This document shows positions 14,149 to 54,641 of a DNA stretch of 64,000 nt, in pieces. Each line of letters starts with the position of its first letter. Position 1 is the stretch's first letter. This DNA comes from an uncultured delta proteobacterium. GTDB taxonomy: Bacteria > Myxococcota > Myxococcia > Myxococcales > Anaeromyxobacteraceae. Location of the stretch: the NCBI GenBank assembly GCA_963814585.1, contig CAWFDF010000010.1, positions 136,394-200,393 of the forward strand, given 5' to 3'. The position numbers were made by a program, and so were the translations under genes. The notes beneath the pieces are model-generated. The model did no database searches. It saw only the letters and a program-made list of their open reading frames with translations, and was not told where the DNA came from.

Positions 14149-14982
14149 ATGTCGCTCCTCTCAGCCATCCTGCTCGGCATCATCCAGGCGGCCACCGAGT
14201 TCCTCCCGGTCTCCTCCACCGCCCACCTGCTGATCTTCGGTGAGCTGATGGGCCAGTCGCTGGAGGAGCCGCACTTCCGCGCCTTCGTGGCCATCATCCA
14301 GTCCGGCACGGCGCTGGCGGTGATCGTCTACTTCCGCCACGACATCTGGAAGATCCTGCGCGGCTCCATCGCCGCGCTGGCGCGGGGCACGCCGCTGGCC
14401 ACGCCGGAGGCCCGGCTCGGCTGGCTCATCGTCCTCGGCACCATCCCGGCCGCGGTGCTGGGCAAGCTGCTCGAGCGCCGCATCGAGGCGCTCGGCAACT
14501 GGGTCATCGCCGGATCGCTGGTCTTCCTCGGCGTGGTGCTGTTCGTCGCCGAGCGGCTGGCGCGCCACGTCCGGTCGGTCGAGTCGGTCGGCGTGAAGGA
14601 CGCCGTGCTGGTGGGCCTGGCGCAGGCCTGGGCCCTCATCCCCGGATCGTCGCGCTCCGGCAGCACGCTCACCATGGGGATGCTGCTCGGCTTCACGCGG
14701 GAGGCGGCCGCCCGCTTCTCCTTCCTGCTCTCCGTCCCCATCATCATCGCGGCGGGCGCCTACAAGCTCTGGAAGGAGCTGCCCCGGCTGGCTGGCGCGC
14801 CCGAATGGCAGCAGGCCACCGCGGTGGCCACCCTGGTCTCCTTCGCCGCCGGCTACCTGGTCATCGGCTGGCTGCTCGGCTGGCTCCGGACCCGCCCGAC
14901 CTACCTCTTCGTCGCCTGGCGCATCGCCGCCGGCCTCGCCGTCGCCATCCTCATCTCGGTGGGCGTGCTCCCGGCGTCATGA
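14149..14982 (+). CDS. uppP: undecaprenyl-diphosphate phosphatase
   Basis: [33 protein letters not shown]. Confidence 0.95.
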
Positions 14983-15569
14983 ACCTCGCCGAGCTGGAGG
15001 CCGCCCTGGCGGCCTGGCGGCCTCGGCCCTCACCCATCGAGCGGGTCCCGGCCCGGCACTGGCCGGAGGGGGGCTTCGGCGAGGCGGCCGTGCTGGTGCC
15101 GCTCCACGAGGAGGACGGGGTGGCCAGCGTGCTCCTGACGCTGCGGCGCACCGACCTGCGCCACCACGCCGGGCAGGTGAGCTTCCCGGGTGGCCGGCTC
15201 GATCCCGGCGAGGCGTCGCTGGACGCGGCGCTGCGCGAGGCGCGGGAGGAGGTCGGGCTGGACCCGTCGAGGGCGCGCATCCTGGGGCGGCTCTCGGAGA
15301 CCGTCGTGCTCCAGTCCGCCAATCGCTTGACGCCGTGGGTGGCTTCGGTGCCATATCCCTTCCCATACGCGGCGTCGCCGCGAGAGGTGGAGGCCATCTG
15401 GCACGTCCCGATTCCGGCGCTGCTGGCGCCCGGAGTCCACCGCACGCAGGTTCACCGGTTCTACGGGATCGACGTGGACGTTCACTACTACGAGGTCGAG
15501 GGCCGGACGATCTGGGGCGCCACGGCCCGGGTCCTCTCCGAGCTGATCGAGGTCTGGAGCGCGGGATGA
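14979..15569 (+). CDS. Nudix hydrolase, CoA pyrophosphatase family
   Basis: [16 protein letters not shown], Nudix box [17 protein letters not shown]. Confidence 0.92.
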
Positions 15570-16648
15570 AGATCTTTCCGGTGATCATGGCGGGCGGGTC
15601 GGGGACGCGGTTCTGGCCGATGTCTCGCCGGGCCAGGCCGAAGCAGTTCCTGCCGCTGGCGGGCGACCAGCCGCTGCTGACCGCCACCGTCCGCCGCCTG
15701 CCGCCGCTGGCGAAGCCGGCCGACACCTACGTGGTCTGCGGGCCGGCCCACGCCGCCGCCGCCAAGAAGCTGGTGAGGGAGCTGCCGGCGAGGAACTTCA
15801 TCGTCGAGCCGTGCGCGAGGAACACCGCGCCGTGCGTGGGGCTGGCCGCCCTCCACGTGGCGGCACGCCAGAAGCACGGCATCGTCGCCATGCTGCCGGC
15901 CGATCACCACATCGCCCGCCCCGAGGCCTTCCGCGAGGCCATCGCCGAGGCGGCCCGGCTGGCCGAGCAGGGGCACATCGTCACCATCGGGATCCGGCCC
16001 CACGCCCCGGAGACCGGCTACGGCTACCTGAAGGTTGGCGCCAGGCTGCCCGGCAAGGCCAAGGGACGCAGCCAGGCCCACAAGGTGGAGCGGTTCGTCG
16101 AGAAGCCCGACGTGGTGACCGCGGCCCGCTACCTCGCCGACGGCCACTACCTGTGGAACTCGGGCATCTTCGTCTTCCGCGCCGACGTCATCCTCGAGGA
16201 GATCCGGCGCGTCATGCCGGTGCTGGGTGAGCAGCTGGATGCCATCCAGCAGTCGATCGGCACCCCCGGCTACCAGCGGACCCTGGCGCGCGTCTTCCCC
16301 GACTGCCCCTCCATCTCCATCGACTACGGCGTCATGGAGAAGAGCCAGAAGATCGTGGTGGTGCCGGCCGACTTCGGCTGGAGCGACGTGGGCAGCTTCG
16401 CGGCGCTCCCCGAGGTGCGCCAGACCGACCACCTCGGCAACGTGGCCGAGGGCGACGCGCTGGTGATCGACGGCCGCAACAACGTGGTCATCGCCACCGG
16501 CGCCCGGCCGGTGGCGGTGGTGGGGCTCGACGACGTGGTGGTGGTCGACGCCGGCGACGCCATCCTGGTCTGCCGGAAGTCGCGGGCCCAGGACGTCCGC
16601 AAGGCGGTCGACGAGCTGGCGCGGCGCGGCCGCGACGAGGTGCTCTAG
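15566..16648 (+). CDS. manC: mannose-1-phosphate guanylyltransferase
   Basis: [47 protein letters not shown]. Confidence 0.95.
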
Positions 16649-18018
16649 TGTCCGGGGTGAATCCGGTCGTCTTCCGGGAGTACGACATCCGCGGCGTGGC
16701 GGGCGTCGACCTCACCGAGGAGACCGTGGGGCTGGTGGCGCGCGCGCTGGGCACCAGGGTCCGCGCCGCCGGCGGCCAGGTGGTGGTGGTGGGGCGGGAC
16801 GTCCGGCTCTCCAGCCCGGCTTTCCACGGCCAGGTGGTGGCGGGGCTCACCGCCACCGGCTGCGACGTGGTCGACCTCGGCGTGGTCCCGACGCCCCTGG
16901 TCTACTTCGCGGCGCAGACCATGGCCGTGGACGGGCTCTGCATGATCACCGGCTCGCACAACCCGGCCGACTACAACGGGATGAAGATCGGGGTGGGCCC
17001 GACCACGCTCTACGGCGAGGCCATCCAGGAGATCCTGCGGATGGTGCAGCAGGGCCGGTTCGCCAGCGGGCAGGGGAGGGTGACGGCGCACGACATCGTC
17101 GCCCCTTACCAGGACCGCGTGGTGGGGAACATCCAGCTCGGTCGCCGCCGGCTCAAGGTGGTCATCGACGCCGGCAACGGCACCGGCGGCGTCGCCGTGC
17201 CCATCTTCCAGCGGCTCGGCGTCGAGGTGGTCCCGCTCTTCATCGAGCCGGACGGCCGCTTCCCCAACCACCACCCCGACCCCACCGTGGAGAAGAACCT
17301 GGAGCCGCTGAAGCGAGCGGTGCTGGAGACGCGCGCCGACCTCGGCATCGCCTACGACGGCGACTCGGACCGGGTGGGCGCCGTCGACGAGAAGGGGCAG
17401 GTGCTGTGGGGCGACCAGCTCATGATCCTCTTCGCCCGCGCCATCCTCGCCGAGGTGCCGGGGGCGGCCATCGTCGCCGAGGTGAAGTGCTCCTTCACCC
17501 TCTACGACGACATCGCCAGGCGCGGCGGCCGCGGCATCATGTGGAAGGCCGGCCACTCCCTCATCAAGGCCAAGATGAAGGAGGAGCACGCCGAGCTGGC
17601 CGGCGAGATGAGCGGCCACATCTTCTTCGGGAACCGCTGGCTCGGCTTCGACGACGGCATCTACTCGTCGGCGCGCCTCGTCGAGCTGGTCAGCCGCACC
17701 GACCGGCCCCTGTCGACCCTGCTCGGTGACGTGCCGCGGACCTTCAGCACGCCGGAGCTGCGGGTCGACTGCCGGGAGGAGATCAAGTTCGAGGTGGTGC
17801 GCCGCGCCCAGGAGTTCTTCAAGCAGGGCTACCAGGCCATCACCGTCGATGGCGTGCGGGTGGTCTTCCCCGACGGCTGGGGGCTGGTGCGCGCCTCCAA
17901 CACGCAGCCCATCCTGGTGCTCCGCTTCGAGGCCGTCACCGAGCCGCGGCTGGCGGAGATCCGGAGGCTGGTCGAGGATCGGGTCGGCGCCATCATCGCG
18001 GAGCTCGGCGGTCCGTGA
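16648..18018 (+). CDS. phosphomannomutase/phosphoglucomutase (AlgC/ManB-like)
   Basis: FREYDIRG, TGSHNP, DGDSDR, GEMSGH, RASNTQP. Confidence 0.95.
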   Translation: MSGVNPVVFREYDIRGVAGVDLTEETVGLVARALGTRVRAAGGQVVVVGRDVRLSSPAFHGQVVAGLTATGCDVVDLGVVPTPLVYFAAQTMAVDGLCMITGSHNPADYNGMKIGVGPTTLYGEAIQEILRMVQQGRFASGQGRVTAHDIVAPYQDRVVGNIQLGRRRLKVVIDAGNGTGGVAVPIFQRLGVEVVPLFIEPDGRFPNHHPDPTVEKNLEPLKRAVLETRADLGIAYDGDSDRVGAVDEKGQVLWGDQLMILFARAILAEVPGAAIVAEVKCSFTLYDDIARRGGRGIMWKAGHSLIKAKMKEEHAELAGEMSGHIFFGNRWLGFDDGIYSSARLVELVSRTDRPLSTLLGDVPRTFSTPELRVDCREEIKFEVVRRAQEFFKQGYQAITVDGVRVVFPDGWGLVRASNTQPILVLRFEAVTEPRLAEIRRLVEDRVGAIIAELGGP

Positions 18019-18998
18019 CGGCCCGGCTCGCCCTCGGCGTCGACCTCGGCGGGACCAACGCCCGCGCGGCGCTGGTCGATCCGGCGAGCGGCGTGGTGGT
18101 GGCGGCCCACAAGGTGCGCCACGTCGAGCGGTCTCCGGAGGCGGTGGTGGCGACCATCGCCGCCGCGGTCCGCGAGGTGGCCAGGGCGGCCGGTGTCGAG
18201 GTGGCCGGGCTGGGGGCGGCCGGCGTCGGCGTGGCCGGCCAGTGCCTGGGCAGCACCGGCACCGTCCTCAACGCCCCCAACCTGGGCTGGCGCGACGTCT
18301 CGCTCGGCGAGCCGCTCCGCGCCGCGCTCGGGCTGGAGGTGCGGGTGGTCAACGACCTCTCGGCCGCGGCGTGGGGCGAGCTGCGCTTCGGGGCGGCGCG
18401 CGGTGTCGACGACGCGGTGCTGGTCTTCGTCGGCTCGGGCGTCGGCTCGGGCCTCATCCTCGGGGGCCGGCTCCACGAGGGTGGGCGGGGCGTGGCCGGG
18501 GAGCTCGGGCACATCAAGGTGGCGCCGCGCGGCGCGACGCCGCGGCGCTGCGGCTGCGGCGAGTGGGGTTGCCTCGAGGCCTACGCCGGCGGGATGAACC
18601 TGGCGGCGCGGCTGCGCGACGAGGTGGCCGCCGGGAAGGCCGGCGGCGTGCTGGCGGCGGCCGGCGGCGAGCCCTCCGCGCTGTCGGCCTCGGCGGTGGA
18701 GGCGGCCTACGCCGCCGGCGACCCCTACGCCCGGGAGCTCTGGGCCGAGGTCGGCGAGCTGATCGGCACCGCCTGCGCCAACGTGGTGACGCTGCTCAAC
18801 CCGCTGAGGCTCGTCCTCGGCGGCGGCGTGCTGCTGGGCTGCGGCAACCTGGAGCGGATCGTGCGCGCGCACGTCGCGGATCGCGCGCTGCGAGCGGCCC
18901 GGAGCGGACTCGAGGTGCGGCGCTCCCAGCTCGGCGACGACGCCGGCGTGGTGGGCGCGGCGCTCCTCGGCGCGGCGCGACACTCGCACCAGAGGTGA
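18015..18998 (+). CDS. ROK family sugar kinase (glucokinase-like)
   Basis: GVDLGGT, VVNDL, GELGH, CGCGEWGCLE zinc motif. Confidence 0.92.
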   Translation: MTARLALGVDLGGTNARAALVDPASGVVVAAHKVRHVERSPEAVVATIAAAVREVARAAGVEVAGLGAAGVGVAGQCLGSTGTVLNAPNLGWRDVSLGEPLRAALGLEVRVVNDLSAAAWGELRFGAARGVDDAVLVFVGSGVGSGLILGGRLHEGGRGVAGELGHIKVAPRGATPRRCGCGEWGCLEAYAGGMNLAARLRDEVAAGKAGGVLAAAGGEPSALSASAVEAAYAAGDPYARELWAEVGELIGTACANVVTLLNPLRLVLGGGVLLGCGNLERIVRAHVADRALRAARSGLEVRRSQLGDDAGVVGAALLGAARHSHQR

Positions 18999-19114: not shown

Positions 19115-19143
19115 TTGACGGGATCGATCGCGCTTTGTAACGT
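19115..19143 (+). promoter_or_regulatory. sigma70-type promoter for the Lys-rich micro-ORF (and possibly rqcH)
   Basis: TTGACG (19115-19120), 17-bp spacer, TAACGT (19138-19143), in locally AT-richer DNA. Confidence 0.7.
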
Positions 19144-19205
19144 GCATCCACATTGTCCATTCGTGAGTCACTCATGAAGTGAATGGACGTTCCGAGGAGG
19201 GAACT

Positions 19206-19271
19206 ATGGCTGCCAAGAAGAAGGCCGTGAAGAAGGTTGCGAAGAAGAAGACCGCCAAGAAGAAGAAGTAG
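19206..19271 (+). CDS. 21-aa lysine-rich micro-protein MAAKKKAVKKVAKKKTAKKKK
   Basis: Below ORF-track cutoff. SD GAGGAGGG just upstream of ATG, promoter upstream, terminator downstream; 12 Lys, all AAG. Confidence 0.8.
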   Translation: MAAKKKAVKKVAKKKTAKKKK

Positions 19272-19298
19272 CGATCGGTTCAGCAGCAGAGTGGTGCC

Positions 19299-19329
19299 GC
19301 GGCCGCCTTCGGGCGGCCGCAGCTTTTTT
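19299..19329 (+). terminator. intrinsic terminator / possible attenuator
   Basis: GCGGCCGCC-TTCG-GGCGGCCGC 9-bp stem with a UUCG loop, followed by AGCTTTTTT. Confidence 0.85.
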
Positions 19330-19338
19330 GGGAGCCGC

Positions 19339-20790
19339 ATGTCGCTGACGGCGGTCGAGCTGGAGCTGGTGGTGGGGGAGCTGCAGGCGCTGCGCGGCGC
19401 GCGCGTCGACGCCGTGCGCGTCCACGCCGAGCGCGCCCTGACGCTGGAGCTGCACGGGCGCAGCGAGGCCGCGCTCCTGCTCCTCTGCGCCGAGCCCGAG
19501 GTGACCCGGCTCCACGTCAGCACCGTGCGCCCGGTCCAGCCCGCCAGCCCCTTCGCCTGGCAGGCACCGCTCCGCCAGGCGCTGGAGGGATCGCGGCTCG
19601 AGGCGCTGGAGCTGCAGGCCGGGGATCGGGTGGTGACGCTGCGCTTCGAGCGGGCCGGCGGCCGGGTCCAGCTGGTGGCGGAGCTGACCGGCCGCCACGG
19701 CAACCTCCTCCTCGTCGACGCCGGGGGCGTGGTCCGCTTCATGGCGTCGCGCGTCGCCGAGCCGGGGCGGCGCCTGGCCCCGGGCCTGCCCTGGACGCCG
19801 CCGGCGGCGCCGCGAGGTGAGCGGAGGGCCGGACCGCGCTTCGAGCCGGTGGCCGGCGCTTCCTTCCCCTGGTCCCTGGCGGTCGAGCGCCGCTACGCGG
19901 CGATCGAGGCGGAGCGGACGCTGGTCGAGGCGCGCCGGCGGCTGCGCGAGCCCTTGCGCGCGGCGCTGGCCCGGTCGAGGCGGGCGCTGGAGAGGCTGTC
20001 GGACGAGGCGGCCCGGGTGCCGGCGGCCGAGGCCGACCGGCGCGCCGGCGACCTGCTCAAGGCCAACCTCCAGGCCGTGACGCGCGGAGCCCGGGAGGTG
20101 ACGCTGACCGAGTGGACCGCCGACGGACCGGGCGAGGTGCGGGTGGCCCTCGACCCGGCGCTCACCCCGCGCCAGAACATGGAGCGCTTCTACCGGCGCT
20201 TCAAGCGGATCGCCGAGAGCGCGGCCCGGGTCGAGGCGCGGGCCGGCGAGGTCCGCGCCAGGCTCGAGGCCGTCGGGGCGCTGCTGGAGCGCGTCGACGG
20301 TGCGCCCCTGGAGGAGCTGCCGGCCATCGAGCGCGAGGCGAGGCGGCTGGCGGCCGGGCCACGGCCGGCGGCGAGGCCGCGCCGGCCGCGGGAGCAGGCC
20401 TCGCTGCCCTACCGGACCTTCCGCTCGGTGGCCGGCCTGGCCCTGCTGGTGGGGCGCGGCGCCGCCGAGAACGACCAGCTCACGCGGCGCGTGGCGCGCG
20501 GCAACGACCTCTGGCTCCACGCTCGCGGGCTGGCCGGCGCCCACGTGATCATCCGCCTCGGCGGCCGGGAGGCCGACCAGGAGTCCCTCCTCGACGCCGC
20601 CCACCTGGCGGTCCACTTCTCCGACGCCCGCGGGGAGCCGCAGGTGGAGGTGGCCTGCACGCGGGCCAAGTACGTCCGCAAGGGGCGCGGCGCGGCCCCC
20701 GGCGCCGTCACCTACAGCCAGGAGCGGATGCTCCACCTCCGCACCGAGCCGGCGCGGCTGGCCCGGTTGCTGGCCGAGGAGGCGCCTTGA
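19339..20790 (+). CDS. rqcH: NFACT family protein (RqcH/Rqc2/FbpA-like ribosome quality control factor)
   Basis: NFACT-N GDRVV and ELTGRHGNLLL, coiled region LDPALTPRQNMERFY, NFACT-R VGRGAAENDQLT...DLWLHARG..GAHV. Confidence 0.88.
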   Translation: MSLTAVELELVVGELQALRGARVDAVRVHAERALTLELHGRSEAALLLLCAEPEVTRLHVSTVRPVQPASPFAWQAPLRQALEGSRLEALELQAGDRVVTLRFERAGGRVQLVAELTGRHGNLLLVDAGGVVRFMASRVAEPGRRLAPGLPWTPPAAPRGERRAGPRFEPVAGASFPWSLAVERRYAAIEAERTLVEARRRLREPLRAALARSRRALERLSDEAARVPAAEADRRAGDLLKANLQAVTRGAREVTLTEWTADGPGEVRVALDPALTPRQNMERFYRRFKRIAESAARVEARAGEVRARLEAVGALLERVDGAPLEELPAIEREARRLAAGPRPAARPRRPREQASLPYRTFRSVAGLALLVGRGAAENDQLTRRVARGNDLWLHARGLAGAHVIIRLGGREADQESLLDAAHLAVHFSDARGEPQVEVACTRAKYVRKGRGAAPGAVTYSQERMLHLRTEPARLARLLAEEAP

Positions 20791-21584
20791 CGGTGGACCG
20801 GGCCGCCGCCCACGATGGCGGGACCGTGGACGCGCGCGAGGTGCACCGGCAGCTCCAGCTCTTCGACGGCCGCCACCTCGGCCGGGAGGAGCGGGTGGCG
20901 GGGGCGCGCCGGATCGCCGACGAGATGGCCGGCTCGCTGGGGGAGCCGGTCAAGCTCACCGTGCACGACAACCGCTCCACCATGGTCTCCTTCCGGCGTG
21001 TCGGCGGCGGCCTGCACGTTCGCCTGCACCACATGTTCCTCGAGGCGCCCGGCGAGGTGCTCCGGGCCCTGGCCGCCTTCGCCGGCACCGCCCGGGGCGC
21101 GACGGCGAGGCGCCGCGAGGCGAGCCGGCGCATCGACCGGTTCGTCCGCGACCGGCGGGACCGGATCGGCGCGCCGAGGGTGGGGCGGCTGCAGCCGCGC
21201 GGGCGGGCTCACGATCTCGGCGCCCTCTTCGACCGGCTCAACGCCAGCGAGTTCGGCGGCGCGGTGCAGGCGCGCATCGGATGGGGCGCGGTGCGGCCGG
21301 GGCGGCGCCGGCGCACCGTCAAGACCGGCGTCTACCTGCACGAGGCCCGGGCCATCCGCATCCACCCGACGCTGGACCGCCCCGAGGTGCCCGAGTTCTA
21401 CGTGGCGGCGGTGGTGTTCCACGAGATGCTCCACCAGGTGGTGCCGGTGCACGAGCGCAACGGCCGGCGGGTGGTCCACGGCGCCGAGTTCCGGCGCCGG
21501 GAGCGGGCCTACGCCGACTACCAGCGGTCGCGCGACTGGGAGAAGGCCCACCTCGGCCTGCTGCTCTCCTCGCCGGATCGCTGA
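20787..21584 (+). CDS. SprT-like zinc metalloprotease domain protein
   Basis: FHEMLH (HExxH), LFDRLN..F, HGAEFR; TTG start overlaps the rqcH stop (alternative GTG at 20826). Confidence 0.75.
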   Translation: MTVDRAAAHDGGTVDAREVHRQLQLFDGRHLGREERVAGARRIADEMAGSLGEPVKLTVHDNRSTMVSFRRVGGGLHVRLHHMFLEAPGEVLRALAAFAGTARGATARRREASRRIDRFVRDRRDRIGAPRVGRLQPRGRAHDLGALFDRLNASEFGGAVQARIGWGAVRPGRRRRTVKTGVYLHEARAIRIHPTLDRPEVPEFYVAAVVFHEMLHQVVPVHERNGRRVVHGAEFRRRERAYADYQRSRDWEKAHLGLLLSSPDR

Positions 21585-53888: not shown

Positions 53889-54641
53889 TCACTCCCGCGC
53901 CACCCAGGTGGTCCGGGCCCGGGCCAGCTCCTTGCCGTCCTCCTCGCGCACCACGGCGTGGAGCCGGGCGCCGTCGCCGCCGGGCACGGAGCGGGAGCGG
54001 ACCTCCTGCCCCAGGAAGGCCTCGGCCAGGAACTGCACGTCGAGCGAGGCCAGCCGGCGCTCGCGCCAGTCGGCCTCCTCCACCGCCTCGACGGCCCAGC
54101 CGACGTAGCTCGACGCGGTGACGTGCCGGTTGACGTCGATGTCGGCGTAGCGGACCTGGAAGCGCCGCTCCAGCGTCGGGGTCGCGGGCGTCGGCCCCGC
54201 GAGCGCGGGGAGCGGCGCCGCCTCGACCGGCAGGACGTGCTCGGTCTGGGCGCGGCGCTCGGGCGGCAGCAGCCGGTCCGGGCGGCTGGGCCGGCGGGTG
54301 GCCAGGTCCATCACGTACCAGGTGGTGAGCGCCCGCCCCACCACCGCCCCGTCCCGGAGCACGCGGAAGTCGCGCAGGGCCGCCAGGCGGTCGATCCCCG
54401 ACGGCCAGGTCTCGACCGTGAGCGTTTCGCCCAGGCGCAGGGGCGCGTCGAGCACCACCCGCTGCCGCGCCAGCACCCAGGTCAGGCCCAGCGCGTTGAG
54501 CCTGGAGAGTCCGAAGTCGAGCGACTCGGCGGAGCGGCCGGCGGCGTCCTGCAGGTAGCCGGACAGCGCCGCCGGCGCGAGGAGGCCGAAGGCGTCGGCG
54601 TCGAAGCGGTGGACCGTGAAGGTGGCGCGGGTGACCTCCAC
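53889..54641 (-). CDS. acyl-ACP thioesterase (double hotdog fold)
   Basis: YLQDAA, WVLAR, VETWP, RYADIDVNRHV. Confidence 0.88.
   Translation of the reverse strand: MEVTRATFTVHRFDADAFGLLAPAALSGYLQDAAGRSAESLDFGLSRLNALGLTWVLARQRVVLDAPLRLGETLTVETWPSGIDRLAALRDFRVLRDGAVVGRALTTWYVMDLATRRPSRPDRLLPPERRAQTEHVLPVEAAPLPALAGPTPATPTLERRFQVRYADIDVNRHVTASSYVGWAVEAVEEADWRERRLASLDVQFLAEAFLGQEVRSRSVPGGDGARLHAVVREEDGKELARARTTWVARE

Follow-up and report, generated by a model that had tools for sequence, protein, structure and literature searches.

The window analysed here is a stretch of 64,000 nucleotides (nt) from an uncultured delta proteobacterium of the family Anaeromyxobacteraceae (contig CAWFDF010000010.1, positions 136,394 to 200,393), and our subject is a short open reading frame (ORF) that encodes a Lys/Ala microprotein directly ahead of rqcH, the gene for a factor of ribosome-associated quality control (RQC). 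All elements of the locus lie on the + strand. A predicted sigma-70-type promoter consists of the -35 hexamer TTGACG (19115-19120) and, 17 nt after it, the -10 hexamer TAACGT (19138-19143), which is the sole TAnnnT between 19100 and 19340 and from which transcription would start near 19150; a stricter promoter scanner gave TTGACG-17-TAACGT no score. There follow a 5' leader hairpin with arms of 8 base pairs (bp) (19155-19188), retained in many loci of the family and probably stabilising, and a Shine-Dalgarno (SD) sequence, GAGGAGGG (19194-19201), that is strong by its duplex energy. Other families have differing hairpins at the position of the leader hairpin. The ORF itself (19206-19271) is translated as MAAKKKAVKKVAKKKTAKKKK, with 12 lysines among 21 amino acids (aa); the original prediction was right to call it Lys-rich, but its label "poly-Lys" overstates the case, as no more than 4 lysines stand in a row (in 73 of the 87 orthologues the longest run is 3).

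Downstream of the stop codon, 27 nt lead to the hairpin of an intrinsic terminator (19296-19329), made up of a core stem-loop (19299-19320; 9 GC pairs, a UUCG loop, -20.3 kcal/mol), two further pairs out to 19296/19323, and a U6 tract (19324-19329). A spacer of only 9 nt (19330-19338), which carries GGGAG and holds no promoter pattern, then separates the terminator from the ATG of rqcH (19339-20790), and 35 nt 3' of rqcH begins a gene for a SprT-like HExxH protein (20826-21584; 23.8 bits, just below the Pfam cut-off of 25.6), probably co-transcribed with it. Every part thus stands where the original prediction had placed it, in the order promoter, ORF, terminator, GGGAG and rqcH. Judged from sequence comparison, the 483-aa product of the last gene is RqcH (NFACT_N 160.8 bits and NFACT-R 47.4 bits, both above the Pfam cut-offs; E 2e-41 against Bacillus subtilis RqcH), with a putative role in Ala-tailing. 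It comprises NFACT-N, the coiled coil and NFACT-R, and retains the DR (96-97), E115 and D-x-W-x-H motifs, residues reported as required in RqcH (10.1101/2020.09.03.281279).

Conservation of the gene pair

Relatives were surveyed by locating rqcH and then reading the upstream DNA for a subset of the matched genomes (L016, L020 and L274, which had no upstream flank, were dropped); f1 denotes the family of the window organism, and other f-numbers denote other families. These genomes are kin, not independent samples, and the counts are descriptions, not tests. A Lys/Ala ORF lies 5' of rqcH in 96 of the 112 genomes examined in the order (f1 41/41, f2 1/1, f3 5/5, f4 2/13, f6 37/42, f8 9/9, f9 1/1) and in 20 of 43 examined elsewhere in the phylum (f14 14/15, f16 3/3, f20 2/2, f10 1/1), with two assignments in f3 and one in f14 made by hand. 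It is absent upstream of rqcH in f12 (0/16), f18 (0/3, the start being uncertain in two) and f13, f23 and f24 (0/1 each), as well as in seven records titled Planctomycetota, Planctomycetia or Acidobacteriota. The check set by the original prediction, that ORF and hairpin stay linked to rqcH across genomes, therefore has a positive answer. A terminator scan of the window locus found one site against 0.7 +/- 0.9 in shuffled sequences, a single hit that alone is not beyond chance; the arrangement as a whole is not due to chance, because the ORF stands upstream of rqcH in all 41 family genomes and a 20-nt hairpin core is found in all 41. At gathering thresholds Rfam returned no match in the window.

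Several loci depart from the common layout. In L257 (genome G179) the ORF encodes 318 aa, its stop codon overlaps the start of rqcH, and the terminator is absent; L282 and L121 have hairpin and rqcH separated by an inserted gene for an unrelated membrane protein of about 160-170 aa; and L006, L199 and L025 have insertions of 100-180 nt between the ORF stop and rqcH, possibly repeat elements, some with strong hairpins.

Among the 87 loci with a complete ORF, a sigma-70 pattern (TTG[AC][CA]-n16..18-TAnnnT, within 170 nt of the ORF start) occurs upstream of the ORF in 80, and the full pattern occurs between the ORF start and rqcH in none. Strong SD sequences (duplex of -6 kcal/mol or better) precede all 87 ORFs, and 24 of 75 rqcH genes (12 with uncertain starts were dropped). 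The claim that no promoter fits between terminator and rqcH is thereby borne out, and since no sigma-70 pattern separates the ORF start from rqcH, the gene would probably depend on read-through. That rqcH instead has a weak promoter of its own, served by an alternative sigma factor or giving a leaderless start, and merely sits behind an independent gene, is very unlikely in our judgement. In 6 of the 87 linked loci a TAnnnT does stand 4-18 nt ahead of the start of rqcH, three unlinked f4 genomes show TTGACC-16-TACCGT before rqcH, and L006 tolerates about 180 nt inserted behind its hairpin; but TAnnnT was not found between 19144 and 19340 in the window, the stem ends only 7-20 nt from the rqcH start in 33 of the 87 loci, and in RNA from a relative (G114, see below) no pile of read starts before rqcH was seen among those listed.

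The encoded peptides range from 18 to 318 aa (f1 18-42, f16 20-23, f8 25-36, f6 26-82, f3 194-202, f14 62-318), the variation arising through Lys-rich repeats. The 69 distinct peptides begin MA(A)KK (A, A, K and K at positions 2-5 in 60, 55, 65 and 66 of them), and the C-terminus is free, with K as the last residue in 32. Two 200-aa forms pass the Pfam model HC2 (PF07382; 46.4 and 55.6 bits, cut-off 40), and Lys/Ala-rich repeats set the length here as in HC2 and H1-like proteins; in Chlamydia, Hc2 varies in length by repeat number (PMC2848022). The ORF has the profile of a gene for a low-complexity polycation, strongly expressed and drifting in length along with the number of repeats. Searches of PDB sequences with the 21-aa and 79-aa peptides gave nothing significant, and none of nine ORF versions was present on exact look-up in a collection of 15 billion proteins. 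The 79-aa version is in the ESM Atlas, where the first match, automatically named, is probably the cluster of that version itself; a cluster with HC2, at 0.88, gives no more than a lead.

Lys/Ala-rich H1-like tails or leaders also occur on many unrelated myxobacterial proteins (L341, L344, L352, L369, L375-L377, L382, L330), which we take to include an Obg-like GTPase, the protein before nadC, and SRPBCC-like and SWIB-like proteins. Outside the window, G000 has further small basic ORFs at C8 547500 (-; 43 aa), C12 36245 (+; 20 aa) and C14 420483 (-; 35 aa), the last with a 37-aa look-alike in G075 (L391).

Transcripts, terminator and the supply of rqcH

RNA data come from three stranded raw runs of one study of one relative, G114, which is not the window organism and carries the 79-aa form; the runs stem from a single unspecified condition, and the mapping listed no differing letters. 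Mean sense depth over the ORF was 2602, 2160 and 3650 in the three runs, and over rqcH 42, 55 and 26, against an antisense background of 35, 51 and 23. The depth over rqcH is thus at most 0.7-2.5% of that over the ORF in raw terms, 0.1-0.3% after background subtraction, and 0.2-1.2% over the first 300 nt. Among the reads, 5' ends accumulate 17-26 nt downstream of the corresponding -10 hexamer and 3' ends just before the hairpin, at which depth collapses. The ORF of G114 therefore gives rise to an abundant, discrete, monocistronic RNA with a steep step at the hairpin, a step compatible with termination or with processing that leaves a stabilised 5' part.

The GC-rich hairpin and U-tract of an intrinsic terminator are present at the locus (the U-tract is missing in f8), and the accompanying drop in RNA is seen in G114 only. 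From stop codon to stem the distance is 10-42 nt overall (f1 23-39, median 27; f6 21-42; f8 10-16), compared with 16-57 nt (median 23) behind the HU genes of 30 family genomes and a median of 30.5 nt for 24 other terminators of the window genome. The spacing of 27 nt is ordinary, and nothing sets the terminator apart. In Escherichia coli a ribosome at the stop codon suppresses nearby termination, whose efficiency is maximal beyond about 30 nt (PMC4824070); because this suppression acts at short distances from stop to terminator, a slight ribosome influence on the window terminator is possible. The f8 loci L181-L192, in which the hairpin follows only 10-16 nt after the stop and has no U-tract, are ones where a terminating ribosome could reach the hairpin.

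We consider it probable that the observed anatomy, its conservation and the RNA-level step in one relative reflect a gene for an H1-like microprotein with a strong promoter and an ordinary terminator, whose leak feeds rqcH and sprT at low dose. The ORF would be an independent gene whose product, a small and disordered Lys/Ala polycation, resembles a histone H1 tail in type and is reduced to 21 aa in the window. A housekeeping sigma-70 promoter would drive its strong transcription, a strong SD would load it with ribosomes, and an ordinary intrinsic terminator would end the RNA. The genes rqcH and sprT would then form the promoter-less distal part of a transcription unit headed by the ORF, with a small and largely constitutive leak setting a ratio of 40:1 or more. 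We infer that the peptide is translated, that it binds nucleic acid non-specifically (as a partner of the nucleoid, RNA or polyphosphate) and that the leak is constitutive. The two genes may have stayed together because rqcH, were it to move, would leave its promoter behind.

Several results weigh against this leak-fed gene pair. The window peptide is not an HC2 member by score, the 21-aa form having no match in Pfam or NCBIfam; 8 of 10 orthologues tested fall below the HC2 cut-off, none of the 10 reaches the NCBIfam cut-offs (NF038052, NF038053), and low-complexity composition accounts for the HC2 matches of the long forms. As short forms cannot be aligned with long ones, their orthology would have to follow from position, promoter, N-terminus and hairpin. 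In seven genomes the ORF DNA is identical, even though their RqcH proteins are 77-84% identical to that of the window; of the fourfold-degenerate sites, none of 8 varies in the ORF, compared with 18 of 48 in HU (none of the first 8 there) and 24 of 42 in rqcH. All 41 family loci share the 20-nt hairpin core, one loop base excepted, while the HU terminator takes 27 different forms in 30 genomes. A stand-alone copy of the ORF was not found in 35 genomes lacking the link, with a start-motif pattern that recovers 66 of the 87 known ORFs and 3 of 3 controls (of the 40 genomes searched, two turned out to carry the linked copy after all, cut or interrupted by a gap), and such an absence is not predicted for an autonomous nucleoid protein. 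A second pattern gave many matches in 10 of the unlinked genomes; only part of them was read, and those at the 80 loci read are tails or parts of other proteins or belong to a different small basic family. Finally, the pattern in G114 fits a constant leak and an attenuator in its off state alike. The deep linkage, the core shared by all 41 loci and the missing stand-alone copies are left unexplained by a simple leak. The missing copies, the invariant core and the identical ORF DNA of the seven genomes keep a cis-acting or RQC-linked role alive.

One such role would make the hairpin a sequence-specific protein site, for RqcH itself or an anti-termination factor for example, with read-through controlled independently of peptide translation. 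We rate this as extremely unlikely. The invariance of the core speaks for it, as do the CGGCC..GGCCG stem base, which recurs in most other families, and the f8 hairpin, which is retained without its U-tract; yet the base motif is common (13 of 85 terminator-like sites of the window genome), the HU stem base is also largely kept, with HU variation confined to an apex that the compact tetraloop stem lacks, and outside f1 both loop and stem differ.

More broadly, an ancient myxobacterial module could tie the Lys/Ala microprotein to RQC functionally, either through ribosome loading that gates read-through or through a polycation acting on 50S-RqcH; we hold this to be possible, if tentatively. The second form, in which the basic protein is an RQC partner (an RNA-binding polycation on 50S, tRNA or RqcH, made in large excess and co-operonic for that reason), is doubtful when taken alone. 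Within 6 kb of rqcH, across 20 linked loci of seven families, the ORF is the most persistent neighbour (sprT in 13, ROK/PMM in 1), in a sample selected for having the ORF. The lack of stand-alone copies in unlinked genomes points the same way, although those genomes represent few independent lineages, and the overlap of stop and start in L257 suggests coupling. A third (33%) of Myxococcota, moreover, have RqcH without RqcP and YlmH (10.1101/2024.03.03.583159). Against such a partnership stand the absence of a match among solved structures, an RNA excess of at least 40-fold that fits a dedicated cofactor poorly, and the Lys/Ala tails on many unrelated myxobacterial proteins, which point to generic affinity for nucleic acid.

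The shape of RqcH bears on the same question. Relative to B. subtilis RqcH, the window protein lacks about 86 aa between NFACT-N and the coiled coil, and positions 165-282 of the NFACT_N model are unmatched; this would be the stretch that holds the helix-hairpin-helix (HhH) motifs in B. subtilis. Myxococcota RqcH proteins measure about 470-520 aa, and positions of about 165-280 are unmatched in other families too, linked or not. The idea that the peptide substitutes for the missing segment was rejected: it is not a simple replacement, because f12 has a short RqcH and the ORF is absent there in 16 of 16 genomes, a fact that also counts against the peptide as an RQC partner.

The proposed ribosome-dependent attenuation

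The original prediction had read the peptide as a leader that senses stalling or Lys supply, and had noted a 7-bp pairing of 19223-19229 with 19298-19304 as a weak anti-terminator. The pairing is present and forms one segment of a longer helix overlooked in that prediction: 18 bp, interrupted (19208-14/19312-18, 19217-20/19307-10, 19223-29/19298-304), joining codons 1-8 (strand 19208-19229) with the whole hairpin at 0.5-2.0 kcal/mol above the best fold. In strength this candidate exceeds what had been claimed for it; it is competitive in the window, but it is not conserved, and recoded controls match it. The computed probability of the terminator fold, P(terminator), is 0.13-0.63 in the seven genomes with identical ORF DNA, and values below 0.7 are confined to 10 of the 41 family loci and 2 of the 44 remaining ones (L023 and L025, mis-called in the hairpin survey, were left out of the count). 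Controls built from the window sequence compete equally well or better in 32 of 150 cases of synonymous recoding and in 23 of 150 cases of shuffled codon order; the helix has its origin in Ala codons that meet the GGC-rich stem and Lys codons that meet the CUUC loop.

Attenuation by ribosomes would have the terminator open when the ORF is ribosome-free, or when its end is crowded with waiting ribosomes, and rqcH would thereby be switched on at times when active ribosomes are scarce; within the genus, codons 1-8 of an RNA clear of ribosomes could pair with the entire hairpin. The locus offers this scheme a short ORF, probably translated to judge from its SD and conservation, between a promoter and a terminator and 5' of a promoter-less gene. 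The deep linkage of ORF and rqcH, the rqcH genes without a promoter pattern in 87 loci, the competing fold, the invariant hairpin core and the near-background level of rqcH in G114, as expected in an off state, all agree with it, and ribosomes can lower termination at less than about 30 nt (PMC4824070). The geometry in the window would nevertheless reverse the proposed stress logic: with a ribosome stalled on Lys 4-6, the anti-terminator strand would be masked and termination promoted, and only ribosome-free RNA would open the hairpin.

In leader peptides the position of the control codons with respect to the hairpin is constant. Here lengths of 18-318 aa, a variable C-terminus without a conserved stall motif and distances of 10-42 nt leave no control codons or arrest motif at a constant distance from the hairpin, the spacing is no shorter than that of HU, and the alternative fold is not conserved beyond chance. 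Lys codons are AAG in 1419 of 1428 cases, and AAG is also the default of the window genome (64/64), whereas the codon that slows output more is AAA (PMC9207662). The absence of the terminator in L257 and the unrelated gene behind the hairpin in L282 and L121 tell against a sensor as well. The sensor claim is thus not supported, and attenuation, which finds poor support in these data, is unlikely.

Neighbouring genes and known systems

Upstream of the locus, a block at 14149-18998 encodes BacA/UppP, a Nudix protein, mannose-1-phosphate guanylyltransferase, PMM/PGM and a ROK kinase; it is retained in the family and was not found beside rqcH outside it. Five loci have rqcH immediately after a gene that is presumably ndk-like (L110, L126, L131, L136 and L139; four of the records are titled Planctomycetota/Planctomycetia and one uncultured bacterium). 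A tRNA-Thr(GGT) gene lies elsewhere in the window (54261-54346, -).

The gene pair is real, widely conserved and apparently undescribed. Titles and abstract openings in the literature gave no link of a basic or H1-like ORF or of an attenuator to rqcH (supplementary tables of myxobacterial start sites lay outside this scope), and a paper that tabulates the rescue factors of 72 Myxococcota genomes does not, in the part available, mention gene context (PMC11633108). The pair brings to light a largely unannotated, very highly transcribed gene for a basic microprotein across much of a bacterial phylum, suggests that polycations of the H1 type can be reduced to about 20 aa, and points to the likely route of rqcH expression in myxobacteria, for which we found no description of rqcH regulation. 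Constitutive read-through, if true, would be a tidy operon observation; gated read-through, or a peptide that binds the RQC complex, would be a new layer of ribosome rescue, and the former would be the first transcriptional control of bacterial RQC.

Among known proteins, the microprotein most recalls Chlamydia Hc2/HctB (PF07382, NF038052), the H1-like proteins of Burkholderia and Bordetella (NF038053) and, presumably, Pseudomonas AlgP; the likeness lies in Lys/Ala/Pro/Thr repeats and in length set by repeat number. It extends to the 200-aa orthologues that pass PF07382, whereas the 21-aa window form matches no model and the NCBIfam cut-offs go unreached; no described linkage of such proteins to rqcH was found, and DNA binding by the window peptide is putative. 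RqcH itself compares with B. subtilis RqcH/Rqc2 (PDB 7aqc_R), with which it shares NFACT-N, the coiled coil, NFACT-R and the DR, E(IM) and DWH motifs, at 483 aa against 570 and with the stretch presumed to bear HhH largely missing.

Ribosome-dependent transcription attenuators such as trpL, pheL, hisL and pyrL, and antibiotic-sensing upstream ORFs such as that of vmlR, resemble the locus in their succession of promoter, short ORF, terminator and promoter-less gene acting on ribosomes. The nearest precedent among upstream ORFs is the antibiotic-sensing toiL (PMC12121999). The window locus differs from all of these in having no fixed ORF length, stall codons, C-terminal motif or conserved anti-terminator, in its ordinary distance from stop to stem and in a target, rqcH, unrelated to Lys supply; by the two defining features tested, conserved alternative fold and fixed control codons, it is not an attenuator.

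A different likeness is offered by the E. coli operons rpsU-dnaG and rpsO-pnp, in which an internal terminator steps expression down behind a small abundant protein. They share with the present locus a strong promoter, a small, highly expressed basic protein, a leaky terminator and a distal gene kept at low dose, with a step of at least 40-fold in G114; here, the first gene encodes an uncharacterised low-complexity microprotein instead of a ribosomal protein, and the distal gene is rqcH.

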